DNA of 56,182 nucleotides from a virus (IMGVR_UViG_3300024265_000058:1-56182), one strand, 5' to 3'; numbered from the stretch's first letter, positions 5,821-31,599 are shown. The notes: generated by a model from the letters alone, not told the origin. Made by a program: numbers and translations.

Positions 5821-6012
5821 ATGACCATTTGTATTGTCGATCACGGCGGTAAGCTGAGCCCGTTTTTCCGGGATGGGTTCTATGCCGGTGAGGCCGGCAA
5901 CGAGATCAGGGAGATGCCTGAGTATGCCCAGTCGATGCAGATAGTCAGGAATATGGTTAAGCGGGAAATTGCCCGGTCGGCCGCCGAAGATCACAAATCG
6001 GCAAACCCATGA
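5821..6012 (+). CDS. Hypothetical protein (start uncertain)
   Basis: Open frame filling the gap between the helicase and the nuclease. Confidence 0.4.
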   Translation: MTICIVDHGGKLSPFFRDGFYAGEAGNEIREMPEYAQSMQIVRNMVKREIARSAAEDHKSANP

Positions 6013-6049
6013 AAAGACGGAAGCGCGACCGGGACCAGGGGATCATAGC

Positions 6050-6409
6050 ATGAGACGATACGCGAACATCAAAAAGCACCAGCACCCTGACGGCACTAAG
6101 CTGGATTCTGGGCGCGAGCTCACGCGGTACTGCGAGCTCCTCCTCCTGCAGCGGGCCGGCGAGATCAGCCTGCTCAAGGTGCATCCGAGGTTTCCGATTG
6201 AGATTGCCGGGGTGCCGATCATGATTAAGTCGAAGCGCTACCACAACGGGCGCCAGCTCACCTATGTCGCTGACTTCACATATTTGGACAAGCAGACTGA
6301 CAGCTTCGTGATCGAAGATGTCAAAATGCAGTCCGGGTTTCGCACGGAGATTTACAAAATAAAACGGGCACTCATGGAGGCAATGGGCAGCCCGATCACG
6401 GAGTATTGA
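6050..6409 (+). CDS. DUF1064-like PD-(D/E)XK endonuclease (putative resolvase)
   Basis: DG..LDS..E..RY..L.LLQRAGEI...YVADFTY...IEDVK...YKIKR pattern. Confidence 0.85.
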   Translation: MRRYANIKKHQHPDGTKLDSGRELTRYCELLLLQRAGEISLLKVHPRFPIEIAGVPIMIKSKRYHNGRQLTYVADFTYLDKQTDSFVIEDVKMQSGFRTEIYKIKRALMEAMGSPITEY

Positions 6410-6410
6410 A

Positions 6411-6680
6411 ATGGGACGAATCTATTCAAGAACAACGACCTGCAATGAGCTGATATCAGCCAAGCAGCGCGAGCTGGTCATCGAGCTGTACACCGAAACC
6501 AATAAGACCTTTCATGAGATGTCGCAGGTAACGGGGGTGCCGGTAGCCAAGATCAAAAAAATGTCACACAGCCTGCATCGGCCGGCGCGCTCGAGGCCGC
6601 TGACTGATCTGCAGCGCACAAGATTGCTCATGAACTGGGAGCGGCCGAATGACCGTCATGGATTTTTTGGAGCTGGTTGA
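6411..6680 (+). CDS. Hypothetical HTH-like protein
   Basis: VIELY...TFHEMSQVTGVPVAKI resembles an HTH. Confidence 0.55.
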   Translation: MGRIYSRTTTCNELISAKQRELVIELYTETNKTFHEMSQVTGVPVAKIKKMSHSLHRPARSRPLTDLQRTRLLMNWERPNDRHGFFGAG

Positions 6681-6984
6681 TTCGGTCACGTACAAGCCCG
6701 GTGAAGTGCTCCGGGTGATCGGCCGGGACGATCCTGAGTATATGTATGACGGCCGGATCAGGCTGGTGCTGGATCGCACTGTGCCTGACGCCAAGCGGCC
6801 CGGTGAAACTATCAACATCCTGCACAATCTGGTGCTGACCGAGTACGATCTCGACGCCCTCGATGACGACCATGCCAAGTATTGGATTTATAACCATCTG
6901 CGCACGGCCGAGATACATGAGTGCGAGGAGTTCCTGAAATTCGGCGGCGTCCAGTACCGCGATCCTCACGCCAATGGTGGGTAG
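6649..6984 (+). CDS. Hypothetical phage protein
   Basis: 111-aa ORF within the operon; HECEEFLKF...DPH motif. Confidence 0.65.
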   Translation: MTVMDFLELVDSVTYKPGEVLRVIGRDDPEYMYDGRIRLVLDRTVPDAKRPGETINILHNLVLTEYDLDALDDDHAKYWIYNHLRTAEIHECEEFLKFGGVQYRDPHANGG

Positions 6985-7438
6985 CACCGAGCCGATCCGG
7001 CCCAAGGACAAGCGCCGTTTCCTGATTATCAAAACGCACTGCGGCTGCCTGTGCTGCCTGCTCATGGGCTGGCCTGATGTGCATGCGACCATCGAGCATG
7101 TCACCGAGGCCGGCCGGCGCAAGGGCCATCACGCCAGCCTGGGCCTGTGCGGCTGGCATCATTTCGGCTACTGTCACCGCGGCAAGCGCGCCGATTACAT
7201 GACCGCTGAGCTCGGGCCCTCACTGGCCAATGGCCGCAAACCATTCGAGGAGTTTTTTGGCGATGAGTCCGAGATCCTGCTGCCGATCCAAAACTACCTG
7301 CTCAAGAGATTTGCCGCCGATCCGTGGCCTGAGTACAATCTGCCCGGTAATGTAGCAATCGACACTCGCACCAAATGGATAGAACTGAATCATGCGACCG
7401 CTCAATCACTGTCACGACCAGCCGATCAGTCAAACTGA
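6974..7438 (+). CDS. Ref/DUF1364-like HNH-type nuclease
   Basis: GCLCC...EH...GH...LGLCGWHH...GPSLA...F...FG.E pattern. Confidence 0.75.
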   Translation: MVGSTEPIRPKDKRRFLIIKTHCGCLCCLLMGWPDVHATIEHVTEAGRRKGHHASLGLCGWHHFGYCHRGKRADYMTAELGPSLANGRKPFEEFFGDESEILLPIQNYLLKRFAADPWPEYNLPGNVAIDTRTKWIELNHATAQSLSRPADQSN

Positions 7439-7555
7439 ATCCGCTCTGGCCGAAATATTGGATGGTGTGCGGCGAGGTAAATCGCATCCTGACCGATCAG
7501 GACGCTCCTGAGCGCCTGATAGGCTCACACTGGCACCCAGACCGAGGATGAAATT

Positions 7556-7912
7556 ATGGCACTCGTAGGCAACCCGCAAGAGCGTGGACAAACACTCATC
7601 GTCATTGGCGTAGATCAGGGCGGCGCTGCCGTCTGCATCGAGCTGGATGACGTTTCCAAATTCAATGAATTTTCTTTGCAGTGCAGCGCTGGCACCATGA
7701 ACTGTCAGGTAAGCCTCGACGGCGTCATTTACACGGCAAACGACATGGCCTGGGAGGATGAGATGTCCACCACTCCGCAGACTCGGGTCATCGCGTTTGC
7801 GGCTGGCAATTTGTATGTAATGCGCGCCAGCATCAAGTCGATCCGTATTCAGTCGAGCGCCGGTGGCGTCGTCAATCCGCGCCTGATGTGCGGCACAGTC
7901 GGGCGCCGATAA
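7556..7912 (+). CDS. Hypothetical beta-rich protein, possibly virion-associated
   Basis: SD GAGGA before the start; QVSLDG motif. Confidence 0.65.
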   Translation: MALVGNPQERGQTLIVIGVDQGGAAVCIELDDVSKFNEFSLQCSAGTMNCQVSLDGVIYTANDMAWEDEMSTTPQTRVIAFAAGNLYVMRASIKSIRIQSSAGGVVNPRLMCGTVGRR

Positions 7913-8200
7913 GTGTCTCAAAAGCTGGCCGATCTGCCCAGTGTGCAGTGGCAAGTCGATAACTGGGATGAGATGCAGGACTTCATCAAGGATTTCGAGG
8001 CGCGCTGCATCCCTGACGGCGACAACCTGCTGCTGCAGGCATGGGGTGGCCTGAATACGGTGCTGCATCCCGGTGACTGCTTGGTGCTCCGGGATAACAG
8101 TGTCGGAATAATTCGAGTGCCGACCGAAGTCGATACGGCCGGCCCGCAGGGGCCGGCAGAGATTCAGACTGATAGCACTAAGCACTCAATGGCGAATTGA
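7913..8200 (+). CDS. Hypothetical phage protein
   Basis: GTG start abuts the upstream stop; VQW...N.DEM...PGD pattern. Confidence 0.6.
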   Translation: MSQKLADLPSVQWQVDNWDEMQDFIKDFEARCIPDGDNLLLQAWGGLNTVLHPGDCLVLRDNSVGIIRVPTEVDTAGPQGPAEIQTDSTKHSMAN

Positions 8201-8361
8201 ACCGTGTAATCGAATTGGCGCTGACCGGACAGCCAGCGCCGAATGGTTCGCTCATCTACTCCAATTTTCCGCGCAAGCGCGGCCTGAGTGAGCCCTGTCG
8301 AGCCGATCAGCTCGGCAAGGTACTCAGGCCGCGGGTCATACTTTGAGGCGTCAGGTTTCAC
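8164..8361 (-). CDS. XRE/Cro-type HTH protein
   Basis: GLTQAALARKIGVDERTIRRWLSG; GTG start (MKPDASK); last gene of the leftward operon. Confidence 0.85.
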   Translation of the reverse strand: MKPDASKYDPRPEYLAELIGSTGLTQAALARKIGVDERTIRRWLSGQRQFDYTVQFAIECLVLSV

Positions 8362-8548
8362 GCGGTTGCTGCCCCATTTTGTCCCACACTCCACCATTCA
8401 GGTAGTGAACTCGGGCCGCCGCTCGCGTCGTGCTGTCATGATCTGACTCGGCCTCGAATTTGCCATCAGGCTTATAGAATCCGACCGTCCATAGTCGGTG
8501 GCGCTCGCCGGCCTCGCGGAAGTCCTCGCTCAGGATGTAGATATACAT
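8351..8548 (-). CDS. Small hypothetical phage protein
   Basis: MYIYI...LWTVGFY.PDGKFEAESDH...AAARVHYLNGG. Confidence 0.75.
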   Translation of the reverse strand: MYIYILSEDFREAGERHRLWTVGFYKPDGKFEAESDHDSTTRAAARVHYLNGGVWDKMGQQPRET

Positions 8549-9483
8549 TGACGTTCTCCCGTGTCGATGTAGTTCTGACTGCAGGCTGAGTGCCCGCATT
8601 CAGGCCCGGACTGAGTGAATGGCTTGGCCTCTTTGACCTCGACCATGTAGCGGCTCTTGCCCTTGTCGCCATCGTTGCCGTCATTGTCGCATTGCGGGCA
8701 CCACACCGTATCGAGCGGGCCCTCGTCATTGATGACTGAGCAACCGTTTACCTCGACCCATGCACTGGTCTGGATATCCGTGCAGCCGCAGTCCGGGCAG
8801 GCCTGCAGCGGACCCTGGCCGGCCGATCCGTCGCTACCGGACTGGCGCAACCTGTACAGCAATGCGATCACTTCCAGCATTTCCTCGGTATCGAGTCGCA
8901 CCCTCACATCGCCCACAGAATTGAAGTCGATGCTGACCGTCTCGCCGGGGAGCTCGCGCATAAAAAAGCCCCTGTGACCGTTCGGCTTGTACTCGTTGCC
9001 AGTGGCCTCTGCGAGCCGCCTAAGCCCGCTCTGCGTCCGATCCTCGTAGGTCTGGGCCTCGGTAGCCCGCTCGGTCAACCGCTTATAGATGCGGTCATAC
9101 TCGGGAAACAGCCGCTCGATCTGCTTGGCGACCAGCCGCGTCTCGCGGTCATAGGCGGCCGTGCATTGCGGCAGTGCTTCCTTTGGATTCCACAGGTTGC
9201 TGATGTACTGGGTCTGCTTGTTGCCGCCCGCGTCGGTGTAGCTCGGCCAGCCGCAGGCCTTGAACTCGATGCGCTGCTTGCTGGCGGCCAGATAGGGGCC
9301 GGCGCTGAACTGCCTGCCGCTATCCTTCTCGCTGATTATGCGCCAGCACGGAAAGCCGTCGCCGTCATAGGCGTCGAGCTGCCAGTCACCGGGCAGGTCA
9401 TCCATGACAGCCTCTAAGATCGCGGCGAATTCATCGGCCCGCCGCTTGGCCTTTTGTTGGTACTCGTTGAGTCCTTCAATCAC
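8530..9483 (-). CDS. Hypothetical protein with C-terminal Cys-rich Zn-binding modules
   Basis: GTG 9483 follows SD GAGGAG; CPDC...WCPQC and CGHSAC...C motifs. Confidence 0.75.
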   Translation of the reverse strand: MIEGLNEYQQKAKRRADEFAAILEAVMDDLPGDWQLDAYDGDGFPCWRIISEKDSGRQFSAGPYLAASKQRIEFKACGWPSYTDAGGNKQTQYISNLWNPKEALPQCTAAYDRETRLVAKQIERLFPEYDRIYKRLTERATEAQTYEDRTQSGLRRLAEATGNEYKPNGHRGFFMRELPGETVSIDFNSVGDVRVRLDTEEMLEVIALLYRLRQSGSDGSAGQGPLQACPDCGCTDIQTSAWVEVNGCSVINDEGPLDTVWCPQCDNDGNDGDKGKSRYMVEVKEAKPFTQSGPECGHSACSQNYIDTGERQCISTS

Positions 9484-9490
9484 GATTTTT

Positions 9491-9548
9491 CTCCTCGTAG
9501 TGGGATGATTCCCGTGCAGCCGCCTCTCACCCGGCTGCCCGTGCGTCA
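9491..9548 (-). repeat. Structured intergenic element, copy A
   Basis: TGACGCACGG GCAGCCG G GTGAGAG G CGGCTGC ACGGGAATCA TCCC ACTACGAGGAG. Confidence 0.9.
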
Positions 9549-9722
9549 CCGTTTCGTGTAGATATTCAGGCCGATAATCGCGTCGGTGCCTTCGATTGCC
9601 TTGTTGCCTGAGCTGGTCGCGATGATGATGGTTTTGCCGCTCTTGCTCGGGCCGTGATCCTTGCTCAGGTCCACGGTTATCGTCAGCTTGTTGCCGTCCA
9701 CTTTCAGGGCTGCATTTTTCAT
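9546..9722 (-). CDS. Small basic beta-rich hypothetical protein
   Basis: MKNAALKVDGNKLTITVDL...GPSKSGKT..IATSSGN...GLNIY; SD GAGGAG. Confidence 0.8.
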   Translation of the reverse strand: MKNAALKVDGNKLTITVDLSKDHGPSKSGKTIIIATSSGNKAIEGTDAIIGLNIYTKR

Positions 9723-9729
9723 GGTCGTG

Positions 9730-9790
9730 CTCCTCGTAGTTGCGGGATGATTCCCGTGCAGCCCGCTCTGACCGGGCTGCCCGTGAGTCA
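9730..9790 (-). repeat. Structured intergenic element, copy B
   Basis: TGACTCACGG GCAGCCCG GTCAGAG CGGGCTGC ACGGGAATCA TCCC GCAACTACGAGGAG. Confidence 0.9.
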
Positions 9791-9898
9791 CCGCCGCCGC
9801 GGCTTGATGTAGTCCAGATATATCGCCAGCCCGAGCGGGACCAGCACTGAGACGGCCGTCAATCCGGCCAGTATGTAGGCGAGCATTGGGTCAATCAT
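9788..9898 (-). CDS. 36-aa single-pass membrane peptide (not in ORF track)
   Basis: MIDPMLAYILAGLTAVSVLVPLGLAIYLDYIKPRRR; SD GGAGGAG; ATGA overlap. Confidence 0.7.
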   Translation of the reverse strand: MIDPMLAYILAGLTAVSVLVPLGLAIYLDYIKPRRR

Positions 9899-10113
9899 GT
9901 GTCTCCTCCTCCGAATAGGTCGCCTGTGACCTGATCCATCTGGGCCCTGAATCGCCGGCGATCCTCGCCGCTGGCGACGGCCTCGGCGCTGACGCCGTCA
10001 CTGCTCAGCCACGCGGCCTCGCATTCAACGCACTGGTGCGCCGTAGTTCCCGGCATCGGGGGCCTGAGCTCCTGCTCGTAGGTGTCCGAGCTGCAGCATT
10101 CCGGGCAGTTCAT
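9895..10113 (-). CDS. Zinc-ribbon protein
   Basis: MNCPECCS...HQCVECEAAW; TGATG coupling. Confidence 0.7.
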   Translation of the reverse strand: MNCPECCSSDTYEQELRPPMPGTTAHQCVECEAAWLSSDGVSAEAVASGEDRRRFRAQMDQVTGDLFGGGDT

Positions 10114-10571
10114 CAGATGGCCCTCACTATGGTTGCCGGCTCGCAGTGCAGGATCGCCGCCACTTCCTTGGCGAATCCACACAGCTCATCGAAGTCACTA
10201 AAAGCCGAATCACAGACCTCGACAATTTCCTCGTCGGCGGCAAATTTCCCGCCGAAAACCGTGTGATAGTCCGAGCAGCATTCGAGGCTGAATCGCCACG
10301 GCAGTACCTCCTCGGGCGTACACCTGACCAGCCTGTAGATCATTCCATCCTCAAGCAGCTCGGCCCACTCGTTGACCAGCATCTCGGGCTTGGGCTCGAA
10401 TGCCTCAGTCTGTGACGGCAGGCCCAGGCTCTCGCGAATCCACGCCATTGCGGTGCAGATATCGTCCCAGTCATCCTCGATGATGTGCTGGCTGTCCTGA
10501 TGCGCATGCAGCGCGTCCCAGATGACCTCAAGCCAACTCTCGGTGTTGCCCTTGGTGACATCGACGCTCAT
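10113..10571 (-). CDS. Acidic hypothetical protein
   Basis: 152-aa ORF coupled at both ends; WDDICTAMAWIRE.LG motif. Confidence 0.7.
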   Translation of the reverse strand: MSVDVTKGNTESWLEVIWDALHAHQDSQHIIEDDWDDICTAMAWIRESLGLPSQTEAFEPKPEMLVNEWAELLEDGMIYRLVRCTPEEVLPWRFSLECCSDYHTVFGGKFAADEEIVEVCDSAFSDFDELCGFAKEVAAILHCEPATIVRAI

Positions 10572-10843
10572 GATTCCTCCCGGACGGCCTCTAAGCCTTT
10601 GCGGTTCAGGCTGCCGTCATCGTTGTAGGTGCGGGGGTCGGCTGCAGGGACATGCCAGCCAAACATCGAGCCGGCAAACATGGCCTCACGCTGCGGCACG
10701 GTGACGCCGATCTCCGCGTTAAGCGCGTCAACGTCCTGCATGCCGAGCGGCCTGTAGCCGGATTCTCCTCGGGTGATCTTGATGGCCTCGCCGGTGCTCG
10801 GCAGGCTTGCGATGCAATACTCCGGTAATGTGTTGCTTGTCAT
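10568..10843 (-). CDS. Hypothetical protein resembling a small mobile-element domain
   Basis: LPEYC...LPSTGE.I.I.RGESGY...N..IGVT..Q..AM.AGSMFGW.VPAADP; recalled family, unnamed; SD CTACGAGGAG. Confidence 0.75.
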   Translation of the reverse strand: MTSNTLPEYCIASLPSTGEAIKITRGESGYRPLGMQDVDALNAEIGVTVPQREAMFAGSMFGWHVPAADPRTYNDDGSLNRKGLEAVREES

Positions 10844-10860
10844 GATGGTGCTCCTCGTAG

Positions 10861-11676
10861 TTAAAACAGCTCACGCTGCTGATTGACCAGTCGCTCAGCA
10901 AGCGAGCCGGCCGCGAACATGGTGAAACCTGTACGCTCCTCCATGTCGATGTATTTCTGTAGTAATTCGGGGTTCTGGCGCGCTGCATTCCTGAGATCGC
11001 CGTCGCATCCCATGATGCAAAATTGACAGCTCAGGCGCTTGTTGCCGTCGCCATAGGCGTGGTGCTGTGTCATGCCCTTGGCGGCGACGTAGTCGAACAC
11101 GCGGCGCTCTTTCCAATCCTTGATAGGTAGCCAGTCCCAGACCTTGCGGCCCAGTGTCGGGGCTGTGAATCGGTCATTAAGTTTCAGCGCCGGCTTTTTG
11201 GCCCGGTTGTCGGACTCCTCGGCGCGCAGGCCCATGACATTGACCGCCTCGGTGATGCCGCGGCGTTTCATGTCGGCCTTGATGAATTTGTCGATGGGGC
11301 CCACTTTCAGGTCACTGGTGCAGGTCCGATATTTCGGGCTCGGCCAGCAGGGTTTATCCGGGTAGAGCTCATGCCGGCGCTCGACCATGCTTAGGAAATC
11401 CTTCGGGCTGCCGTCTTTGAATATGGCGCTGACCACTGTCAGCGGGTGCTCGATGTTGGCCTCGATGTGCTCGACAATGCCATCCCACTCGACCTCGCCC
11501 AGATTGGCGTGGACTACTGTGATCCGGTCAGCCGGCACCAGCTCGCAGACCGTGGCATAGGTGGCAAGCGAATCCTTGCCACCTGAATGACTCACGTAGA
11601 AGTGAGCGCCGTCGATCAGTCGCCCGAGCTCACCGGTCGCCCGGTTAGCTGGACCCTGGCCTTTGCTGGTTGTCAT
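10861..11676 (-). CDS. PAPS reductase-family (PP-loop, Cys-rich) protein
   Basis: SHSGGKDS, RTCTSDLK, GLRAEES..R, WLPI..W and RLSCQFCI motifs; start MTTSK with ATGA overlap. Confidence 0.9.
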   Translation of the reverse strand: MTTSKGQGPANRATGELGRLIDGAHFYVSHSGGKDSLATYATVCELVPADRITVVHANLGEVEWDGIVEHIEANIEHPLTVVSAIFKDGSPKDFLSMVERRHELYPDKPCWPSPKYRTCTSDLKVGPIDKFIKADMKRRGITEAVNVMGLRAEESDNRAKKPALKLNDRFTAPTLGRKVWDWLPIKDWKERRVFDYVAAKGMTQHHAYGDGNKRLSCQFCIMGCDGDLRNAARQNPELLQKYIDMEERTGFTMFAAGSLAERLVNQQRELF

Positions 11677-12365
11677 GCTGCGGCCTCCGGGAATGGGATG
11701 CGCACCGTGCTGCGCTGGCCCATACCGATCCAGTCGGTCATCTCGGCGGCACGGATCGCGGCCAGCCATTTGCGGGGCACCCGGTTGTAGCTGACGGCGG
11801 TGTAGGCGCCGACCATCTCGGTGCCGATAGTCCGCTGAATCCTGAGCGCGCTGCTCGGCACGGCCGGGTGACGGTACTGACCAGTGCGCCGGTTGTAGCC
11901 CCACTGGCTGGTAGTTCCCGGCATCTCGTACTCAAGGATAATCTCGTCGCCAAGTGTGGCCAGTACGCAACCCTCACGCTCGGCCTGATTGGCCCATACC
12001 TCGATGCTGTCATTGGCCTGCCAGAATGTATCGGGGCTGCCGTTCAGGCGCTCGAATATCCAAGCGATCAGGTCGGTGATGTAGAGATTGGAGATCGGCC
12101 CGCGATGCTGTTCCTCGTCGCCGTGCCTGTGGTCCGGTTTCTGGAACTCAATCAGCACGTTCCTGCCGATCTCCTCGCCGGGGAAAAGGGGCAGCCCGGT
12201 GCGCTTGTTGACCCGGACCTCGTCAATCTTGTACGGCCTGATGGCGACAATACCGTGCTCGGTCTGCAGGTGCTCGGTGTGGCCGGCGTCAAGGGCGCGG
12301 CTTATGTCCCGGTATTCGGCTCGCCTGTAGCTGCCGTCTTTCCGTTTCAGTGTGTCAATGCTCAT
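11673..12365 (-). CDS. Hypothetical protein
   Basis: 230-aa ORF with SD CTACGAGGT. Confidence 0.75.
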   Translation of the reverse strand: MSIDTLKRKDGSYRRAEYRDISRALDAGHTEHLQTEHGIVAIRPYKIDEVRVNKRTGLPLFPGEEIGRNVLIEFQKPDHRHGDEEQHRGPISNLYITDLIAWIFERLNGSPDTFWQANDSIEVWANQAEREGCVLATLGDEIILEYEMPGTTSQWGYNRRTGQYRHPAVPSSALRIQRTIGTEMVGAYTAVSYNRVPRKWLAAIRAAEMTDWIGMGQRSTVRIPFPEAAA

Positions 12366-12371
12366 AGTGTT

Positions 12372-12435
12372 ACCTCGTAGGTTGTGGGATGTGTCCCGTG
12401 CAGCCGCCTGTCACCCGGCTGCCCGTGAAACATCA
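12372..12435 (-). repeat. Structured intergenic element, copy C
   Basis: TGA TGTTTCACGG GCAGCCG G GTGACAG G CGGCTGC ACGGGACACA TCCC ACAACCTACGAGGT. Confidence 0.9.
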
Positions 12436-13380
12436 GAATAGTGCCAGTTGCGTTACCTCCCTGAGTGCTGCCGGCGGCGCCGTGATGGCGGCGCTGATGC
12501 CGCCCCAAGTGTCAGCCATCGCCTCGGCAATATTGTCGAATGTCTTGCTGCGCAGTTTCCAGCGATCAGGTCCGGGGCTCTTGTTGTCAGCGCCGCAGAG
12601 TGACTGATTCGCCCATCGATTCACCATCTTGCCGTTGTAGCGGACCCGGCGCGGCTTGATCCATTCGGACTCAGGCGGCACGGGTAGCAGCGGCAGATTC
12701 TCAAGCCACAGGCCGGTGTTCTTGCTGGCGTCGTGGCCAAATTGGTAGGGCTGCACGTACTGGCTGGCTGGCCGGATCGCGGTGCCGATCCTGCTCACCG
12801 GGTTCTCGATTGCCTGCCTCGGGATCGGTGCGGCCATCAGGTCCCTGACGAATTCGAGCGCCTCGTCAGAATTGTGCTGGCGCTCGGGATAGTTGGCGTC
12901 GTGTTTCGGCTGGCATCGCCACAGTTGACTGGCGGCGAGGTACTGACATGGCGGGTGGGCGATCATCAGGTCAAAGCCGTCGCCCAGAATGTCTCTCACA
13001 TCGCCCTGATAGTGCTGTCCCGGCGTCTCGGTCGGTAGCAGGTCGCAGGACATGGCCGAGTGACCGCGAGCCGTCAGCGCGTCCCTGACGGTGCCCGAGA
13101 ATTCACAGGCGACCAGTACGCGGCTGAGCATGTAGCCGGCTGCCTGTGCCCGCTCGATGGCCGTCACGATATCGCCGCCGTAGTTCTCAAGGTCGGCGCC
13201 GGGGCGCTGGCTGTGGACTGCCTGAGCGGCGAGCTCGCCGGTATCGAGGTAGTCGTCAGCGACGGCGTCACCGCGTCGGATATTGAGCATCTGGGAATCC
13301 GTCAGCTCGGCCCGGACGGCCGCGGAAAAGTCCGCGGCCAGCCGGGTAACGTCGAGCGCCGGCAGCTTGATAATGCTCAC
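12433..13380 (-). CDS. Phage DNA cytosine methyltransferase-like protein with ~85-aa N-terminal extra domain
   Basis: VLVACEFSG (motif I-like), SCDLLP, QGDV, DLMIAHPPC (motif IV), ENP (motif VI), QPYQFG...K.T.LWL..LP.L, RSKTF..IA.AMA..W. Confidence 0.85.
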   Translation of the reverse strand: MSIIKLPALDVTRLAADFSAAVRAELTDSQMLNIRRGDAVADDYLDTGELAAQAVHSQRPGADLENYGGDIVTAIERAQAAGYMLSRVLVACEFSGTVRDALTARGHSAMSCDLLPTETPGQHYQGDVRDILGDGFDLMIAHPPCQYLAASQLWRCQPKHDANYPERQHNSDEALEFVRDLMAAPIPRQAIENPVSRIGTAIRPASQYVQPYQFGHDASKNTGLWLENLPLLPVPPESEWIKPRRVRYNGKMVNRWANQSLCGADNKSPGPDRWKLRSKTFDNIAEAMADTWGGISAAITAPPAALREVTQLALF

Positions 13381-13793
13381 GCTCGGCCCTCCATACCCTT
13401 GACGGTCATGGCGACGATTTCCTCGCCGGCCACGGCGCTCTGCATGGCAGTCTTGAGAATGCCCTGATAGTTGGACAAGCAGCGGTAGCCGTAGCCGTCC
13501 ATCGTCTCAGCGCCGGGGCGCACATCTCGGTGCGCTGCGCTGCAGTTCATCAGCTTGGCCTCGATGCTGCCCTTGCTGCGGTCGGCCAGTTTGCCGGCGT
13601 AGTCGCTGGCGTCTCCGGTGTAATCCTCGTCGCCGGGTTTTGGTGTGCCCTGAGCGGCCCGGATCATGTGGGCCTTGTACTTGGCGCCCGGTGCTGTGGT
13701 GGCGATTTCGAGCATCTGGAAATAGAGCTCACAGATGGCTCGGTTCTCGTCGTCGGTCCACGGCCCGAGTGTTGCTTTCTTGGTTGTGGTCAT
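13377..13793 (-). CDS. Standalone domain resembling the N-terminus of HNH/DUF3883 restriction-type nucleases
   Basis: WTDDE...YFQML...RSKGSIEAKLMNCSA...GY..LSNYQ; SD GGAGG; no nuclease domain follows. Confidence 0.6.
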   Translation of the reverse strand: MTTTKKATLGPWTDDENRAICELYFQMLEIATTAPGAKYKAHMIRAAQGTPKPGDEDYTGDASDYAGKLADRSKGSIEAKLMNCSAAHRDVRPGAETMDGYGYRCLSNYQGILKTAMQSAVAGEEIVAMTVKGMEGRA

Positions 13794-13800
13794 GGGTTTG

Positions 13801-13860
13801 CCTCCATTGTTGTGGGATGATTCCCGTGCTGCCGTCTCTGACACGGCAGCCCGTGAGTCA
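13801..13860 (-). repeat. Structured intergenic element, copy D
   Basis: TGACTCACGG GCTGCCGT GTCAGAG ACGGCAGC ACGGGAATCA TCCC ACAACAATGGAGG. Confidence 0.9.
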
Positions 13861-14289
13861 CACCTCGAAACGGTCGTGGACCGGGATCGGTGAGGTGACT
13901 GGGAAACGGCTGTCACTGGTCGAGATGTAGTGACCGCCAAACATGCCGCCGCGCCGTGGCCTGCCGTCAGCGTCAACCGGTCGAGCGACCACATTGACAA
14001 TGCGGTGGCGATCCACGTAGCCCTGCGGATTGCGCAGCACTTCAAAGTCGCCCACTGGCCGGGTATCAATCCCGAGCTCTTTCAGCCATGCCGGCTTGGC
14101 AACGCTGAGCTGACCGGCCTGCAGTGCAGGCTCGAAATCGTACTCAAGGATAACCGCCGGGGCGTCGTCGCTCGGCTCGAATGGGCCGCGGATTCCGTCA
14201 CCGATCAGGGTGACATGGCGGCGCCCAGATGTGACGCCGTTGGCAGTGCAGTCCGTACCGTGGACTGAAACGTGTAGGCCATTAGTCAT
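13858..14289 (-). CDS. Hypothetical phage protein
   Basis: DCT.NGVTS...GPFEP...MFGG...TSDSRF...IPVHDRFE; SD CTACGAGGAG. Confidence 0.8.
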   Translation of the reverse strand: MTNGLHVSVHGTDCTANGVTSGRRHVTLIGDGIRGPFEPSDDAPAVILEYDFEPALQAGQLSVAKPAWLKELGIDTRPVGDFEVLRNPQGYVDRHRIVNVVARPVDADGRPRRGGMFGGHYISTSDSRFPVTSPIPVHDRFEV

Positions 14290-14419
14290 GGCTTTTCTCC
14301 TCGTAGTGCTGTGATCGGATCACAGCGGAATGGTGGCGGTAATATGCCGCCTGCTTGATGACCAGAATGACGGCCCAGAAAAGGCCGCCGGTCAAAGTGA
14401 TGTAGTCGAGTGCTGTCAT
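14282..14419 (-). CDS. 45-aa membrane peptide, first gene of the accessory operon (not in ORF track)
   Basis: MTALDYITLTGGLFWAVILVIKQAAYYRHH...; directly downstream of the promoter. Confidence 0.5.
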   Translation of the reverse strand: MTALDYITLTGGLFWAVILVIKQAAYYRHHSAVIRSQHYEEKSHD

Positions 14420-14454
14420 GGGTTTGCCGTCCAAGTTGTGTGAAATCGTCTCCG

Positions 14455-14483
14455 ACGATACCGGACCATTGGCCCGGTGTCAA
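14455..14483 (-). promoter_or_regulatory. Sigma70-like promoter with palindromic spacer
   Basis: TTGACA-ccgggccaatggtccgg(17)-TATCGT on the - strand, at the head of the leftward operon. Confidence 0.75.
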
Positions 14484-14539
14484 GCACAACAGGGACCGGG
14501 TAAGATGCAGCCTTCTGCAGGCAATGGATACAGCAGGCA

Positions 14540-15145
14540 ATGAGCGAACCTACCCAAGCGAACAGCGCCCCAAGTCTCCCAGTTTCCCGCCCTCGTCTCC
14601 GGGGCGCGCTGGTCAAGTTCAATGACACGGTAGCGGACCAGATATGTGGGCGCATGGCAGAGGGGGAGACACTGCGGCAGATATGCAGGGACGCAGCCAT
14701 GCCGGCAAGGTCAACGGTATACCGGTGGCTGAGCAGAAATCCTGACTTCGCGGACCAGTACGCGCTGGCGCGGGAGTGCCTCGTTGCTGCATGGGCCGAT
14801 GAAATCATTGACATTGCTGACGATGGGACTACCGACTATGTCGAGAAGGTAGGCCGCAACGGCACTGAGTACATGGCCGTGGATCAGGAGCACATTCAGC
14901 GCAGCCGGCTGCGTGTGGATACCCGGCGCTGGCTGCTGTCCAAGCTGAACCCCGGCCAGTACGGCGATCACATGGAGGTCGAGCACACCGGGGCAGTCGA
15001 TCACCGACACCATATAAGCGACACCGAGAAGGTACGGCGCTTGGCCCTGTTCCTGCTGCAGTCACCCGGCGGCAGCACTGTCATCGATGGCCACGCCGAG
15101 CCGATCCCTGCTGAACTGGAGCCCGACCAGCCTGACGATGAGTGA
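14540..15145 (+). CDS. Terminase small subunit (Sf6 gp1-like)
   Basis: ICGRMAEGETLRQIC...MP..STVYRWL...Y..ARE...DEIIDIADD...RSRLRVDTRRW.LSKL.P..YGD. Confidence 0.9.
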   Translation: MSEPTQANSAPSLPVSRPRLRGALVKFNDTVADQICGRMAEGETLRQICRDAAMPARSTVYRWLSRNPDFADQYALARECLVAAWADEIIDIADDGTTDYVEKVGRNGTEYMAVDQEHIQRSRLRVDTRRWLLSKLNPGQYGDHMEVEHTGAVDHRHHISDTEKVRRLALFLLQSPGGSTVIDGHAEPIPAELEPDQPDDE

Positions 15146-15268
15146 TGGCGAGCATTTGAGAGAATGCCTGCGCCCTGTGTGGCCGACCCCCCCCGGACCC
15201 CTGTGGCTGCAGCGCTGAGCCTGGAGAGGGCGACCTGCTCCAGTTTTTCCAGAATTTCCACGCGCTAT

Positions 15269-15300
15269 TGTTAGTGTTTACAGCCCATGTTAGTGTTTAC
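15269..15300. repeat. 13-bp direct repeat TGTTAGTGTTTAC x2
   Basis: Copies at 15269-15281 and 15288-15300, just before ATG 15303. Confidence 0.8.
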
Positions 15301-15302
15301 GG

Positions 15303-15572
15303 ATGGATGCCCCGAAGTGTCAGAAAATACCCGGATGTGGCAGGCGTCACTACGGGGATTGCGCGGAAAGCGGCAACGCGGCGAAAACGGAAAGAGTGCC
15401 CGCCAAGTCGGAGGATGCCCCACGGGTCATGCGGCCCGCGGCTCAGTTGCCTTTGCAGGATCGGGTTGTGGCGCTGGAGCAGATCGTGGATGAGCTGCTG
15501 GCGGGAAAGCGCAAGCGCTCGGAGTACATGAAGGCTTACATGCGAGATCGGAGGGCCCGAGATGCGGGTTAG
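15303..15572 (+). CDS. Hypothetical protein with basic C-terminal helix
   Basis: C..C...H...C N-terminus; KRKRSEYMKAYMRDRRAR C-terminus. Confidence 0.6.
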   Translation: MDAPKCQKIPGCGRRHYGDCAESGNAAKTERVPAKSEDAPRVMRPAAQLPLQDRVVALEQIVDELLAGKRKRSEYMKAYMRDRRARDAG

Positions 15573-15855
15573 CAGGAGAGAATTTATAGCGGCGATGGCG
15601 GCTGGCATGGTTATGACGGCCGAGGGCTTGTGGATGCCCGGTCAGAAATTGATTTCGATTCCGAGCAGAAAAATATTTTTGCCGGCTGGCAAGCTGGCCT
15701 GGATGGAGGATGGTGTCATGTATATGTACACCGGCGGCTTGCGCGGCGGCAAAACTGAGCCGACCTTGATCCCGAAATATTTCGATGTGCATGTTCGCGG
15801 TGCCGAGATCGTGCGTGACAAGTTGCAGCGCGCCTCCGGGGTCATGGCGCAGTGA
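15562..15855 (+). CDS. Hypothetical protein with twin-arginine-like leader
   Basis: MRVSRREFIAAMAAG; overlaps the upstream stop. Confidence 0.6.
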   Translation: MRVSRREFIAAMAAGMVMTAEGLWMPGQKLISIPSRKIFLPAGKLAWMEDGVMYMYTGGLRGGKTEPTLIPKYFDVHVRGAEIVRDKLQRASGVMAQ

Positions 15856-16431
15856 TCGGCCGCTGGAAATCGCGCAAAAATAAAAAACGTGCCCGCGGCA
15901 AGCGGTCATTTATCAAGTCGGAGGCCGGCAGTGGTCGCATGAAGGCGCCGCGGCCGGAATTGAGCGCCGTGGGCAAGGCGCTGCAAAAAATTGCCCGGAG
16001 GGGAGATCGCGGTGCGTAGGGGGATTTATGAAATATTCACGACGACGCTGGCTGGACCGGAATGGGTGGAACAATTTGAGGGCTCGCGCTCCGAAGCTCG
16101 CGCTCATTGCCGAGCGCTTGACACGAAAAAAGACGGCGACCGACGACGCGGGCAGACCTCAACCCCGCGCTTTGTCAGGTATCTCTGAGCGGGAGTTTCA
16201 GAAGGCTGCCCGGACTCTCAGGCTTGGCGGCCTGCCGCCTGAGCCGGTTGTTGCCGAGCTTATCGAGCGGTGGGAGCGTGAGGATTTCGAGGACTGCCTG
16301 CCGCCGTGGCATCGCATGAATCTGTGGCGCCGCCGCGCCCACTGGGAGCGAGATTACGTTTTTCGCTTCTGAGGGCGTATAGTCGGCCCGGACATTCCTA
16401 AGCACCGATAACAAGCAGTTAGGAGACTTCA

Positions 16432-16959
16432 ATGGGCGCACCGCAAATTTTAACGAGTATTCATGGCCGGCTTTTCGGAATCGGTCCCAAAGGCGAGATG
16501 ATCGTCAATTCAACCGCCGGCAATTTGGAAAATGCGCAGGCGGTGGTCAACGCCGTCGAGCGAGTGACCATAGCCAATGCCTTGGTACTGGCACTCAACG
16601 CCACGCCGTTTGAGATAGTGCCGTCACCGGGGCCCGGTAAAACGCTGATCGCAAACAGGATTGTGGCCTCAAAGGCGGCTGGTACGGCGTTCGCCGCTGG
16701 CGCGGGCGAGGACCTGGCCGTGCAGTCTGAGGGTGGTGGCGTGGTTTTTGCTGCCATCGATTCGGCCAGTTTCTTGGATTCGGCGCTTGACGAGATTCGC
16801 TTTGGCGACCGCGTCCCGGTCAATCCCGAGGTACTGGATGTGACGGCGCTGCAGGATTTGGCGCTCGAGGTAACGATACTGGTGGGCGAGGTCATCACGG
16901 GTGATTCGGACCTGATCGTGGAGGTCCATTACCAGACGTTTGACGACCTGCTCAGCTAA
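16432..16959 (+). CDS. Hypothetical beta-rich protein, putative virion component
   Basis: Strong SD AGGAGA; acidic, V/A/G-rich; followed by a terminator. Confidence 0.75.
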   Translation: MGAPQILTSIHGRLFGIGPKGEMIVNSTAGNLENAQAVVNAVERVTIANALVLALNATPFEIVPSPGPGKTLIANRIVASKAAGTAFAAGAGEDLAVQSEGGGVVFAAIDSASFLDSALDEIRFGDRVPVNPEVLDVTALQDLALEVTILVGEVITGDSDLIVEVHYQTFDDLLS

Positions 16960-16978
16960 AAGAGCACGTTCCTGATTG

Positions 16979-17020
16979 GGGTGGGTTGCGCCGTTGATTT
17001 CGTGACTCACCCATTTTTTT
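16979..17020 (+). terminator. Intrinsic terminator
   Basis: GGGTGGGTTGCG/CGTGACTCACCC stem (with G-U pairs) followed by ATTTTTTT. Confidence 0.6.
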
Positions 17021-17039
17021 GGAGTGATCGGATCACACC

Positions 17040-17183
17040 ATGCCCGAGGACAGCTTTTTGTGGGGTCAGTATCGCTGGAACACAGCCGACTGGCCCTCGC
17101 GCCTGACTTTCGTCGCATCCGGCACCCTGCCGGCCGATTGCGTCATCACCGAGGTCAAGCAGCAGGTAGCAAACGATGAGTAG
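17040..17183 (+). CDS. 47-aa hypothetical protein (not in ORF track)
   Basis: MPEDSFLWGQYRWN...; overlaps the terL start. Confidence 0.4.
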   Translation: MPEDSFLWGQYRWNTADWPSRLTFVASGTLPADCVITEVKQQVANDE

Positions 17184-18771
17184 AGAATCGGCGCTCATTG
17201 ACGACCTGATGGAAAAATATCTGGCGCTGCCGGATGAACAGCGCGCCGAGCTCGATCAGTATGTCGAGGATGAGTCCAAGGGGCATTTGTGGTTTCCCAC
17301 GGTCGGCCCGCAGCTCAATGCGGTGGACTGTCAGGCCGACATTCTGCTGTACGGCGGTGAGGCCGCTGGCGGCAAAACCGACCTGATACTGGGCTGCGCA
17401 TTCGAGCACCATCAGCGCACCCTGATAATCCGCAAGCACTATGTAGATCTGACCGCGCTGACTGACCGCGCCAAGGAAATCAACGGCACCGACAAGGGCT
17501 ACAAGGGCTCGATCCCGCCACGGCTAAAAACGGTCAATGGCAAGATCATCGATTTCGGCGGTCTGGCTCAGCTCGGTGACGAGAATCACTGGCAGGGTCA
17601 GCCGCACGATCTCCTGGCCGTCGATGAAGTGGTGCAAAATCGCGAGGCGCAGATTCGATTCCTGATGGGCTGGCTCAGGACCACCGATCCGGGCCAGCGC
17701 TGCCGCGCCATATTCGCCTCAAACCCGCCGACTGACCCGAGCGGCGACTGGATTATCCCGATGTTTGCGCCGTGGCTCGATCCACGGCACCCGGACCCGG
17801 CCGCTCACGGCGAGCTCAGGTGGTGCGTCTCGGACGCCGATGGCAAGGATTTATGGGTCGATGGGCCTAATCCCATTGAGATCAACGGCAAGGTGCAGCG
17901 GCCGATGTCGCGCACCTTTATCCCGGCGCACCTGTCTGACAATCCGTTTCTTGCAAAAACCGGCTATGCCGCGCAGCTCGATGCGCTGCCTGAGCCGCTC
18001 AGGTCCGCAATCCGCGACGGCAATTTCATGGCCGCACGGCAGGATCAGGCCGACCAGCTCATCCCGACTGAATGGGTACGCCGTGCTCAGGCCCGCTGGC
18101 AGTCGCTCCCGCCCTACGGGGTGCCGATGTGCGCAATCGGCGTCGATGCGGCACGGCAAAAGGACAAAACGGTGCTGGCACCGCGTCACGATGGCTGGTA
18201 TGCGCCGCTGATCGCGGTGCCCGGACATGAGACGCCGCACGGCACCGATGTCGCAGCGCTGGTGGTCAAGCACCGCCGGCATGAGGCGGTGGTCATTTTC
18301 GACTGTGGCGAGACAAACGGCGCGCAGGCCTATGCGCACTGCAAGGAAAACGGCATCGAGGTCAGGCGCCATATCGGCATGGACAAGTCCAGCAGCCGCA
18401 CCGCGGAGCGCCAGCTCAGCTTTTTCAACAAACGATCCGAGGTCTTGTGGCGATTCCGCGAGGCGCTCGATCCGGGGCAGGATGGCGGCTCACCGATAGC
18501 GCTGCCGGATGACCCGGAGCTGATTTCCGATTTGACCGCACCGCGCTGGACCCTGACGCCAAACGGCATCAAGGCCACCAATAAGGCCGATGTCATCAAG
18601 ATGCTTGGACGCAGTCCAGACAAGGGCGATGCGGTGGTCATGGCCTGGGTGGCAGGGCCGAAAGCGCAGACACATCTGCAGGAATGGCGGCCCGATCAGC
18701 GAGTTGGTAAGATTCCGGGCGGCGGCAAGAAAAACCCGGTGGTGAACATGGGATCAAGGAGACGGAAATGA
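17176..18771 (+). CDS. Terminase large subunit
   Basis: LLYGGEAAGGKT Walker A, VDE Walker B, SNP, FIPA.L.DNPFL, IGVD and SPD.GD nuclease motifs. Confidence 0.95.
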   Translation: MSRESALIDDLMEKYLALPDEQRAELDQYVEDESKGHLWFPTVGPQLNAVDCQADILLYGGEAAGGKTDLILGCAFEHHQRTLIIRKHYVDLTALTDRAKEINGTDKGYKGSIPPRLKTVNGKIIDFGGLAQLGDENHWQGQPHDLLAVDEVVQNREAQIRFLMGWLRTTDPGQRCRAIFASNPPTDPSGDWIIPMFAPWLDPRHPDPAAHGELRWCVSDADGKDLWVDGPNPIEINGKVQRPMSRTFIPAHLSDNPFLAKTGYAAQLDALPEPLRSAIRDGNFMAARQDQADQLIPTEWVRRAQARWQSLPPYGVPMCAIGVDAARQKDKTVLAPRHDGWYAPLIAVPGHETPHGTDVAALVVKHRRHEAVVIFDCGETNGAQAYAHCKENGIEVRRHIGMDKSSSRTAERQLSFFNKRSEVLWRFREALDPGQDGGSPIALPDDPELISDLTAPRWTLTPNGIKATNKADVIKMLGRSPDKGDAVVMAWVAGPKAQTHLQEWRPDQRVGKIPGGGKKNPVVNMGSRRRK

Positions 18772-29704: not shown

Positions 29705-31599
29705 TGGCCACTATCCCGCAAGTAATTGATTACGGCTCCAGACCATCGCTGAGATCAAGCCGCGTCGATATACCGGGGCAGGGCGAGCTGGCGACCGCTG
29801 ACGCCATCGAACGTGCCGCCAATACCTTCGGCCAGGTCATGGTCGAGCGTAAGGTCAAGCAGGACCGTTTCAATTACTCGATGGCCAAGCAGGAGTTTCT
29901 GACTGCCGATCTGGCGCAGCGTGAGGCGCTCAAGGATGACCGGGACTATGAAAGTTTCGATGAGAAGTACCGCACCGGGCTCGGCGCCGACCGTGATCGG
30001 ATCACAGAAAAGTACCGACTGACGCCGCATGACCGGGCCATATTCGATGCCGAGGCAGACCTGATCCGCGAACGCGGCGCGGCCGGCGTGGGCGAGTTCG
30101 GTCGCAAGATCGAGATTGACGACAAGCTGGCCAAGCTGGATGCCTCGCTGGCAATGGCTCGCGAGAAAATACAACTGGCAGACCCGATGACCCGCAACGA
30201 TATCCTGCTGACGACGCTGGATTCGATCACCGCGCTCGAGGATGAGCTGCTGCTGACCGACAAAGAGGCCGAGGCCAAGCGGCAGGAGTTTGTGCAGGAT
30301 GTGGCGCTTGCTTCGCTGACCTCGATGGACCCGGAGGAGCGCGAGAAGGTGCTCGAGGCCTCGCTGGCGGGCCGCAAGGCCGGCGGCGCGCTATCGCCCG
30401 ATGATATCCGTGCCAACAAGGGCACCGGATCGATTGCCGATTTCCTGCACACCGACACCGCAACCAAGCTCTTGAAGGCAACCAAGAAGGAAAACGAGCT
30501 CGACCACACGCAGCGAGATGCCTACGCCGTCGATGATGCGGCATGGTCGATATTCCCGGAGCTGGAGAATAACGCCGACCGCGAGGAGTGGATTCGCCAG
30601 CAGACCAAGGACGATCCGAAGGTCCGCAAGGCGGCACTGGAGGCCAATCGTTTGCGGCAGAATGGAGCGATTCAGGGCGAGGCACTTAACCATCAGGCGC
30701 TTATGGATCAGGGCGAGTCCATGATGGATGCGGGCGAAACGTACACCGGCCTGCCGTCAGACCTGAAATCGAAGCTCACCGATGCCGAAAACAAAAGGCT
30801 GCGGGAATACGGCCAGACCACCGCCGAAAACAGGGGATTCGCTGACGATAATGACTGGGATGCGCAGGAGCTCTGGTCCGATATGTCACAGGCTGAGCGC
30901 GCAGCGACCGATCTGAATGGCTTCTTGCCGCTCGATCCGAATAATCCGGGTCAGGAGCAGGTCAAGTGGAAAATGCTATTCACGCGGGCTCGAATGGACC
31001 TGATGCAGCGCCAGAAGGCAGCAGCCGAGCAAGGCATCGCGGCCGGCAGCGTCGAGCCTGGGCTCACCCAGACACAGGCGCTCGAGAATTACCTGCTGTC
31101 CACGCCGTACTTCGATCACAGGCCGACTGCCACCAGCGACAAGGAGTATCAGGATCGCTGGAGCCGGATTTTCAACGCCTATGATCGGGCCGTCATCAAT
31201 GAGGGCGTAGACCAAAAGCTGACGCCGACACGGCGCCGCGAGATCATCGAGGAGGTCATGCGATTCGAGGTATTCGTGGCCAAGGACTGGGCCACCGATA
31301 AGAAATTCCCGCTGGCGGCACTGTCCGATGAGCAGACCAAGAATGCCTACATCCCGCTCGATGAGCCGCTCGGGCCCAACAAGCAGACCGCCTACACCAC
31401 CATGATTAAGATACCGCCGACCGAAACAGGTCCGGGGTATTCAGGCAACGCATATACGTGGCTGGTGAACACCGGTAGGGCACTCGATAAAAACAATGAA
31501 ATCCCGGATGAGGAGCTGCTCGAGCAAGCGTATTTCTATCTGGTCACTGACGGCGTCGATGCCGCCACAAGGCAGCTCGCATCACCTGAGAGTTACTGA
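29704..31599 (+). CDS. Internal virion / ejection protein (gp15-like)
   Basis: MATIP start; helical 631 aa; synteny. Confidence 0.65.
   Translation: MATIPQVIDYGSRPSLRSSRVDIPGQGELATADAIERAANTFGQVMVERKVKQDRFNYSMAKQEFLTADLAQREALKDDRDYESFDEKYRTGLGADRDRITEKYRLTPHDRAIFDAEADLIRERGAAGVGEFGRKIEIDDKLAKLDASLAMAREKIQLADPMTRNDILLTTLDSITALEDELLLTDKEAEAKRQEFVQDVALASLTSMDPEEREKVLEASLAGRKAGGALSPDDIRANKGTGSIADFLHTDTATKLLKATKKENELDHTQRDAYAVDDAAWSIFPELENNADREEWIRQQTKDDPKVRKAALEANRLRQNGAIQGEALNHQALMDQGESMMDAGETYTGLPSDLKSKLTDAENKRLREYGQTTAENRGFADDNDWDAQELWSDMSQAERAATDLNGFLPLDPNNPGQEQVKWKMLFTRARMDLMQRQKAAAEQGIAAGSVEPGLTQTQALENYLLSTPYFDHRPTATSDKEYQDRWSRIFNAYDRAVINEGVDQKLTPTRRREIIEEVMRFEVFVAKDWATDKKFPLAALSDEQTKNAYIPLDEPLGPNKQTAYTTMIKIPPTETGPGYSGNAYTWLVNTGRALDKNNEIPDEELLEQAYFYLVTDGVDAATRQLASPESY

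Follow-up and report, generated by a model that had tools for sequence, protein, structure and literature searches.

A structured junction element repeated between early genes of an uncultivated phage and its relatives

Genomic location and copy number

The stretch of DNA analysed here (IMGVR_UViG_3300024265_000058:1-56182; hereafter the window, 56,182 nucleotides) is the complete or nearly complete genome, of about 56 kb, of an uncultivated phage. The large terminase, a portal-type adaptor, and tail proteins are encoded on its plus strand, while the minus strand carries a block of small early genes, mostly without known function. Within this block, four gaps of 56-67 nt between consecutive early genes hold copies (A to D) of one structured element. 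All four copies are co-oriented on the minus (coding) strand, and each fills the interval between the upstream stop codon and the Shine-Dalgarno (SD) site that follows (Table 1).

The repeat search identified a single family of four 70-nt copies (9475-9544, 9717-9786, 12359-12428, and 13787-13856). A 16-nt core has four exact matches in the window; two additional matches with three mismatches each represent noise, the mean in shuffled sequences being 2.76 at up to three mismatches. A covariance model applied to the whole window with filters off recognised only the four copies on the sense strand, at 74-82 bits, with antisense images of the copies at 14-28 bits and the next best match at 12 bits. 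The four copies had belonged to the training set of this model, so that independent support comes from other genomes. These three approaches bear out the four copies reported in an earlier note on this DNA, each running from an upstream TGA to an SD site. The strand given there needed correction, since both the genes and the element lie on the minus strand.

Anatomy and alternative folds

Column numbers given below refer to the sense-strand alignment of element copies (alignment A2). Columns 4-15 read GGUGAYUCACGG and include the upstream stop codon, which is located at columns 6-8 in copies A, B, and D and 3 nt further upstream, at columns 3-5, in copy C. Columns 16-38 fold into a GC-rich hairpin whose stem has 7-8 bp and whose loop is GUSASAG, and columns 39-53 read ACGGGAAUCAUCCC. 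Further 3' follow an A/C-rich spacer, the SD sequence (GAGGAG or GGAGG), and the start codon. The inner stem comprises 8 bp and a 7-nt loop in copies B and D; the eighth pair is G.G in copies A and C, leaving 7 bp and a 9-nt loop.

Pairing of columns 4-15 with columns 39-51 prolongs the hairpin into an imperfect helix of 20 positions, 15-17 of which are paired in the four window copies. The mismatches G15.A39, A12.G42, and N9.N45 have constant positions. The helix centre is made up of 5'-ACGG-3' on either arm, self-pairing as A.G, C-G, G-C, and G.A; as read from alignment A2, nine positions above and nine below this block make the helix roughly two-fold symmetric. Alternatively, GGGA (columns 41-44) may pair with UCCC (columns 50-53) to give a small hairpin, which is possible in all four copies and is preferred by RNAalifold. 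In single-sequence folding, the long helix was the minimum-energy fold for 12 of 17 unique copies, with the alternative lying within 0-5 kcal/mol.

Most of this anatomy had been anticipated in the earlier note. The 7-8-bp stem with a 7-nt loop described there applies to copies B and D, but not to the loop of copies A and C. The outer imperfect helix with mismatches at fixed places is real, but spans 20 positions instead of 18, owing to the additional pairs G4-C51 and R5-U50. Because the helix extends two positions further, part of the sequence listed there as a separate TCCC motif belongs to it. The stop codon in the helix base of copies A, B, and D and the second hairpin, GGGA-N4-TCCC, in all four copies were both recovered. 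A role in selenocysteine insertion (SECIS) or readthrough was considered and rejected: the frame past the stop codon ends on the next start codon in copies A and B, but not in copies C and D.

Pairing and covariation

A model scan yielded 57 matches in 16 sources, corresponding to 39 distinct canonical copies. In the alignment of these copies, which was fitted to the covariance model, 95.9% of the long-helix cells are standard pairs, and compensatory (two-sided) changes occur at 9 of the 15 pairs of the long helix; smaller sets agree. The covariation score of the long helix was reached by none of 500 shuffles. As a control, the partner was slid by one to three columns, which reduced pairing to 22-39%. 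Among the individual changes, replacement of the stop codon TGA by TAA is accompanied by C to U in the partner, pair 7/51 is represented by G-C (28), G.U (8), and A-U (2), and G14-C40 is replaced by A-U in five distinct copies. The particular inner-stem and outer-arm covariations named in the earlier note are real in alignment A2, and its view that selection acts on structure holds in this larger alignment. We consider it very probable that the element is an RNA-level intercistronic junction selected for a long irregular helix.

The Rfam search of the whole window gave no match at the gathering score, and the four weak matches obtained at E<=10 over positions 9400-13950 did not include the element, in agreement with its having been recognised as no named motif before. 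The element, covarying at 9 of 15 pairs, is well supported as a structured RNA motif that Rfam lacks. Mimicry of a CRISPR repeat was also considered, given a resemblance of the stem to type I-F repeats, and was rejected; no CRISPR-DR model matched.

Table 1. Coordinates of the four element copies and their parts in the window
Feature	Position	Strand	Description
Copy A	9487..9550	-	last sense codon and TGA stop (9546-9548) of 58-aa gene to GTG start (9487-9489) of 319-aa gene; 78.6 bits
Copy A upper hairpin	9516..9538	-	7 bp + G.G, loop GUGAGAG
Copy A box GGGAAUCAUCCC	9502..9513	-	3' arm of lower helix, or alternatively small hairpin GGGA/UCCC
Copy B	9720..9792	-	TGA stop (9788-9790) of 36-aa ORF to ATG (9720-9722) of 58-aa gene; 81.4 bits
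Copy B upper hairpin	9758..9780	-	8 bp, loop GUCAGAG
Copy B box GGGAAUCAUCCC	9744..9755	-	
Copy C	12363..12435	-	TGA stop (12433-12435) of DNA methyltransferase to ATG (12363-12365) of 230-aa gene; 74.3 bits
Copy C upper hairpin	12400..12422	-	7 bp + G.G, loop GUGACAG
Copy C box GGGACACAUCCC	12386..12397	-	interior covaries with 5' arm UGUU
Copy D	13791..13862	-	TGA stop (13858-13860) of 143-aa gene to ATG (13791-13793) of 138-aa gene; 81.6 bits
Copy D upper hairpin	13828..13850	-	8 bp; compared with copy B, U-A replaces one A-U and one G-C pair
Copy D box GGGAAUCAUCCC	13814..13825	-	
aa, amino acids; ORF, open reading frame.

Occurrence and divergent members

The exact-pattern scan revealed 9 stretches among IMG/VR contigs and 11 among metagenome contigs, and none in 185,579 bacterial and archaeal species represented by one genome each. 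A looser pattern detected 25 stretches in viral contigs and at least 120 matches in genomes; among the matches listed, those outside the clade were due to chance. Filtering left 33 of 159 looser-pattern matches that form 7 or 8 of the 8 stem pairs: 23 from the window and loci L001-L009, and 10 in which the box and the SD site are missing. About ten genomes of related uncultivated phages carry the element, and the family is confined to a single phage clade. All 57 model matches are co-oriented within each contig, and each is located between a stop codon and an SD site.

For a wider comparison, 75 related loci were collected via the terminase; the 319-aa protein, used as a query for related loci, retrieved no relative. 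A phage with merely 65% terminase identity bears a canonical copy, and the architecture is kept with a different sequence in relatives whose terminases are 63-75% identical. Such divergent members were identified by weaker model matches and a box search in L188, L200, L201, L203, L212, L222, and L223, and, at junctions beside homologues of the methyltransferase or of the 138-aa gene, in L195, L217, L231, and L251. A generic scan of the 75 loci for any stop-to-start hairpin junction was too noisy (1456 junctions on either strand, 408 of them 'good').

The divergent members share a lower stem of about 9-10 bp that contains the stop codon, an internal loop or mismatches in mid-helix, and an upper hairpin, with 20-27 bp in all. 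They end in a short second hairpin, followed by ACAAC(G)CGAGGA. The mid-helix internal loops are 2x2 or 3x3 in L201, L223, and L195. Their upper hairpins are unrelated in sequence, vary in length from 7 to 17 bp, and carry the loops GCAA, GUUU, UGCG, and AUCC. The junction after the methyltransferase homologue in L195 and those before the 138-aa homologue in L231, L217, L251, and L222 have a common plan and unrelated sequence; in several of these, the loop of the second hairpin contains a U4 run complementary to GGAAA(G) of the junction's own SD site.

The canonical copies could also be viewed as mRNA sites at which an RNA-binding regulator of phage or host origin (one that represses translation, or a factor for antitermination or pausing) reads the hairpin with its fixed mismatches and the box. 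Their GUSASAG loop, A.G/G.A mismatches, and flanks are invariant or nearly so while the stem pairs vary, as is usual for protein-bound hairpins, and most of the neighbouring early genes have no known function. Loop-specific recognition is not general, because the loops and stems of the divergent members are unrelated; these are swapped while the architecture stays. Furthermore, no RNA-binding domain was found in the proteins scanned, nor any gene that constantly accompanies the element. We regard such a regulator site as unlikely.

The small hairpin is present with changed letters in two divergent classes, as GUGG/CCAC in L188 and L212 and as GGUGGU/GCCAUC in L231 and L217. In both classes, one segment (S2) can pair with either the stop-codon arm (S1) or a third segment (S3), which is a near direct copy of S1. 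The retention of both pairings with altered letters lends moderate support to the idea of two folds, as far as can be judged from a handful of sequences that are possibly related to one another.

One alternative explanation is a ribosome-sensing switch, in which the terminating ribosome melts the long helix, the freed GGGA pairs with UCCC, and translation of the next gene is turned on or off, as coupling or as insulation, without cleavage. This possibility has appeal, since in every class seen the stop codon is part of the helix base or lies at most 3 nt from it. The two folds are mutually exclusive and nearly isoenergetic, the small hairpin persists in L188, L212, L231, and L217, and in two canonical copies C, GGGG, and CCCC jointly replace column 10 of S1, GGGA (S2), and UCCC (S3). 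The U-rich S3 of L188 and L212 shows complementarity to the SD site over 6 positions; in canonical copies, this pairing amounts to only 3 bp. The ribosome was modelled by holding the first 21 nt single-stranded (6 nt before the stop codon, the stop codon, and 12 nt after it). Over 41 junctions, a few of them doubtful, the mean SD accessibility was 0.56 in the free and 0.58 in the footprinted state, and single cases shifted either way; a switch by SD masking is thus unsupported. The second hairpin of L195 is set off from the long helix, with no competition between the two, and canonical small hairpins do not covary. Of the termination-triggered switch put forward in the earlier note, the two folds exist, while SD masking gains no support; we regard a switch of this kind as rather doubtful.

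Cassette shuffling

Gene families and elements were mapped in 12 contigs comprising about ten distinct arrangements, several contigs being overlapping or near-duplicate. The element is located directly downstream of the methyltransferase gene in all nine contigs that hold its 3' end (one of the nine carries a variant class) and is followed there by four different families. It is also located directly upstream of the 319-aa family in nine of the ten contigs that hold this gene, the exception being M258, and five different families precede it. In the interval between these two genes, gene content and order are permuted among genomes. The 143-aa family, for example, precedes the methyltransferase in the window and G001, follows it directly in M256, and is flanked by two other cassettes in M264. 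Slots also change among genomes for the 58-aa and 61-aa families, and families f19, f13, and f22 occupy different slots in different genomes. Contig G003 contains six elements in a stretch for which the window has three (copy D, the fourth, lies upstream of the methyltransferase).

In the cases examined, blastn blocks both start and end within about 10 nt of the element edges. In M264, M266, and G003, for instance, the match to window blocks made up of an element, the 58-aa gene, and another element begins at the 5' edge of the first element and stops at the 3' end of the second. The cassettes are thus shown, as judged from aligned contigs, to be shuffled in related phages, with block ends at the elements. 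This lends comparative support to the earlier suggestion of exchangeable cassettes. No RNA run containing the stretch was found; four DNA runs were compared with it, and in one of them, X2, a contig joins position 9549 to 9911 and omits the 58-aa gene, copy B, and the 36-aa ORF. Given just 28 letters on one side and 80% likeness, this contig suggests simply a relative whose order is G001-like. The joints are about 60 nt long and 85-96% alike, so they may also act as homology patches. Copies at orthologous junctions retain their own stem variant across genomes whose genes are just 70-85% identical, which indicates that the copies are old and selected and did not spread recently.

These data bear on the possibility that the element is a selfish or neutral DNA repeat or chiefly a recombination handle, its palindrome being kept at the DNA level and the RNA fold being incidental. 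Palindromic repeats of bacteria such as repetitive extragenic palindromic (REP) sequences, bacterial interspersed mosaic elements (BIME), and elements resembling miniature inverted-repeat transposable elements (MITE) fill gaps right behind stop codons and may form mRNA-stabilising hairpins. The many copies at gene junctions and the gain, loss, and reordering of copy-flanked cassettes fit this explanation. So does the complementarity at the loop centre (U25/A29 and C26/G28 or G26/C28), which is retained though a hairpin cannot use it. In contrast to those repeats, the element is confined to one phage clade, with no hit in the 185,579 genomes, has no RAYT-type gene, is strictly single-oriented in all 57 matches, and carries a downstream leader and SD context. 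No Y1 transposase (PF01797) was found in the phage, while the control matched in 6 of 14 genomes. The age of the orthologous copies and the passage of changes through G.U intermediates also speak against a DNA-level repeat, which we consider very unlikely.

Transcription signals and known phage elements

Three sigma-70 promoter-like sites were detected within positions 6000-18000 and 11 terminator-like sites were called in the intrinsic terminator search; none of either kind is located at the element, and the hairpin is followed by ACGGGAAUCAUCCC instead of a U-tract. The best sigma-70-like site of the early block, TTGACA-17-TATCGT (10/12) at 14483-14455 on the minus strand, lies about 600 nt upstream of copy D. 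By its sequence it could be an early promoter; such sites are no more frequent here than in shuffles.

Reuse of a DNA-level promoter or operator before early genes, such as an N4-like hairpin promoter or a stoperator-like repressor site, would account for a conserved, asymmetric box 20-30 nt upstream of start codons in a single orientation relative to transcription. The box of L203 is a perfect palindrome (GGGAAU-C-AUUCCC), and the comparable inverted repeat and start-associated sequence of Cluster K mycobacteriophages are thought by their authors to be DNA sites (PMC3203893). Apart from the lack of sigma-70-like hexamers at the elements, the box interior covaries with the stop-codon arm, unlike a fixed protein site, and in the covariance-model scan of the whole window the minus-strand block lacked a copy at its head, near 17.1 kb. 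A T7-like RNA polymerase (PF00940) had no match in the phage, which is weak evidence since the control matched nowhere. A DNA-level signal appears most unlikely.

The Cluster K sequences are the 13-bp start-associated sequence (SAS; consensus GGGATAGGAGCCC), located 3-7 bp before start codons, and the extended start-associated sequence (ESAS) (Pope et al. 2011, PMC3203893). They resemble the element in an SD-proximal GGG-N-CCC box, in imperfect inverted repeats of about 17 bp that precede a subset at a short spacing, and in their restriction to non-structural genes, in a single orientation and with no assigned function (PMC3203893). The authors report departures in ESAS that do not support RNA pairing and favour DNA-binding sites, whereas the compensatory changes in the element support pairing (PMC3203893). 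The SAS consensus GGGATAGGAGCCC is absent from the window, with no match at up to two mismatches.

Promoter-early stem-loops (PeSLs) of T4-type phages combine a strong sigma-70 promoter with a terminator-like stem-loop in AT-rich surroundings (Arbiol et al. 2010, PMC2839356). They are likewise repeated short stem-loop cassettes that extend from the upstream stop codon to the downstream SD site and start codon, are concentrated among small early genes without known function, and border insertions, deletions, and reshuffled modules (PMC2839356). The present copies also border variable modules of related genomes and contain a stable GC-rich hairpin. They differ in having no promoter-like site, no U-tract, and no called terminator, and in building the stop codon into a helix that shows RNA-type covariation and competes with a second hairpin.

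The T7 early RNase III sites, R0.3 to R1.3, are several related irregular hairpins between early genes. The element resembles them in that related copies lie between podovirus early genes and form an irregular hairpin of about two turns with a mid-helix irregularity, for which products with 3' hairpins would be expected. Internal mismatches separate the upper from the lower stem, as in RNase III sites. Compared with the length of such sites, about 20-22 bp, the window helices are shorter (15-17 pairs in 20 positions), and the divergent members reach 20-27 bp. No sequence similarity to the R sites is evident, and the element differs also in the stop codon within its lower stem and in the use of its copies as cassette borders.

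Other features of the genome

An exact 126-nt repeat (22-147 and 56057-56182) was found at the window ends. Because of this repeat, the record probably represents a genome of about 56,035 bp that is either closed into a circle or terminally redundant, despite its linear label in IMG/VR. Among cultured phages, the closest terminase relatives are at most 44% identical. Acidovorax phage AP1 (43%) differs in gene layout, and in a blastn comparison with cultured phages only the methyltransferase was matched (12 records).

A virion-type ORF of 3045 amino acids (36856-45993, plus strand) contains a RadC-like JAB domain and a PBECR5 nuclease domain and has the look of an injected 'polyvalent' protein. 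Its C-terminal 1270 residues and an 824-amino-acid ORF (31599-34073, plus strand) both match phrog_9880. Four tandem 63-nt (21-codon) repeats occur at 36479-36730 within ORF 35775-36854, with a fifth copy at 48288-48350 within ORF 46705-49011; by its placement, this repeat is evidently a peptide module common to the two predicted structural genes. A 127-nt repeat of 76% identity (46148-46274 and 49171-49297) lies near the 5' ends of ORFs 46004-46738 and 49024-50628, which suggests an N-terminal module in common between two tail-fibre-like genes.

In the early block, a gene resembling 3'-phosphoadenosine-5'-phosphosulfate (PAPS) reductase (10861-11676), the 230-aa gene, and the DNA methyltransferase (12433-13380) are grouped at 10861-13380 on the minus strand and may form a DNA-modification module; copy C splits this group. 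The leader CUACGAGGAG with its start codon also precedes hairpin-less genes, at the minus-strand gene starts 10837-10862 and 14283-14308. The CUAC ahead of the SD site in this leader is not explained by pairing with 16S rRNA; it resembles the CsrA/RsmA binding consensus.

Proposed function

The explanation we favour, with a probability of about 0.42 for the whole statement, is that the element is a portable intercistronic mRNA joint that is cut or stabilised in the manner of a T7 RNase III site and whose repeats double as recombination patches, like those of T4 PeSLs. RNase III-type processing as the mechanism, one of the options named in the earlier note, is itself held tentatively. It fits the size class, the mid-helix irregularity seen in every sequence class, and the intercistronic place in the early region. 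RNase III substrates span about two helical turns, and internal loops limit cutting to one strand, which leaves protective 3' hairpins (PMC1540722).

We infer that the element would be transcribed as part of a polycistronic early (minus-strand) message. Its 5' arm starts within the upstream gene, at the last codon and the stop, and would fold with the box GGGAAUCAUCC into the imperfect helix of about 20 positions beneath the GC-rich hairpin. A host double-strand-specific endonuclease of the RNase III type would then cut at or beside the mid-helix irregularity, as in the T7 early R sites; no RNase III domain was found in the phage. After a cut near the centre, the upstream cistron would keep the upper hairpin as a protective 3' end. 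The downstream cistron would start with the box, which would refold into the small GGGA/UCCC hairpin near the new 5' end, ahead of the A/C-rich leader and a strong SD site. Hairpins at the 5' terminus protect mRNA. Both conserved pairings would thereby receive a role, one before and one after cleavage. In this way, the expression of each cassette would be independent of its neighbours. As homology patches, the joints would also allow the deletion, insertion, and rearrangement of early-gene cassettes, either as a by-product or as a co-selected benefit.

Several points weigh against this proposal. With 15-17 of 20 positions paired, the window copies fall short of the roughly 22-bp duplex given for RNase III of E. 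coli (PMC6212723). The conservation of the loop GUSASAG in the canonical family would be left unexplained by an enzyme that reads only shape, and the role assigned to the small hairpin is ad hoc. In the canonical alignment, three pairs of the small hairpin are invariant and one varies one-sidedly, so that support for this hairpin comes from the divergent sequence classes only. Related genomes contributed many of the 39 copies as orthologues, and the covariation counts are therefore not independent events. Finally, the eight G.U pairs at 7/51 would be C.A on the other strand, and the conserved C9.A45 mismatch would be a wobble there, so that wobble statistics alone leave the strand unfixed. The strand is indicated instead by the co-orientation of all copies and their constant stop-to-SD position.

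Another form of the idea is that of a bistable insulator part, in which the terminating ribosome would pick either the long helix, which is cut, or the small hairpin, which is protected. The fate of the downstream cistron would then be tied to the preceding translation, and the early genes would be exchangeable by recombination. We hold this version to be doubtful as well.

Biological implications

To our knowledge, repeated regulatory joints that drive gene shuffling are well documented only in T4-like phages, where PeSLs act via promoters and terminators. An unrelated, podovirus-like clade appears to have gained PeSL-like modularity by means of a promoterless RNA structure. If either cleavage or ribosome sensing is true, the element would be a compact natural part that insulates cistrons and would show how phage accessory genes can remain exchangeable and yet be correctly expressed.

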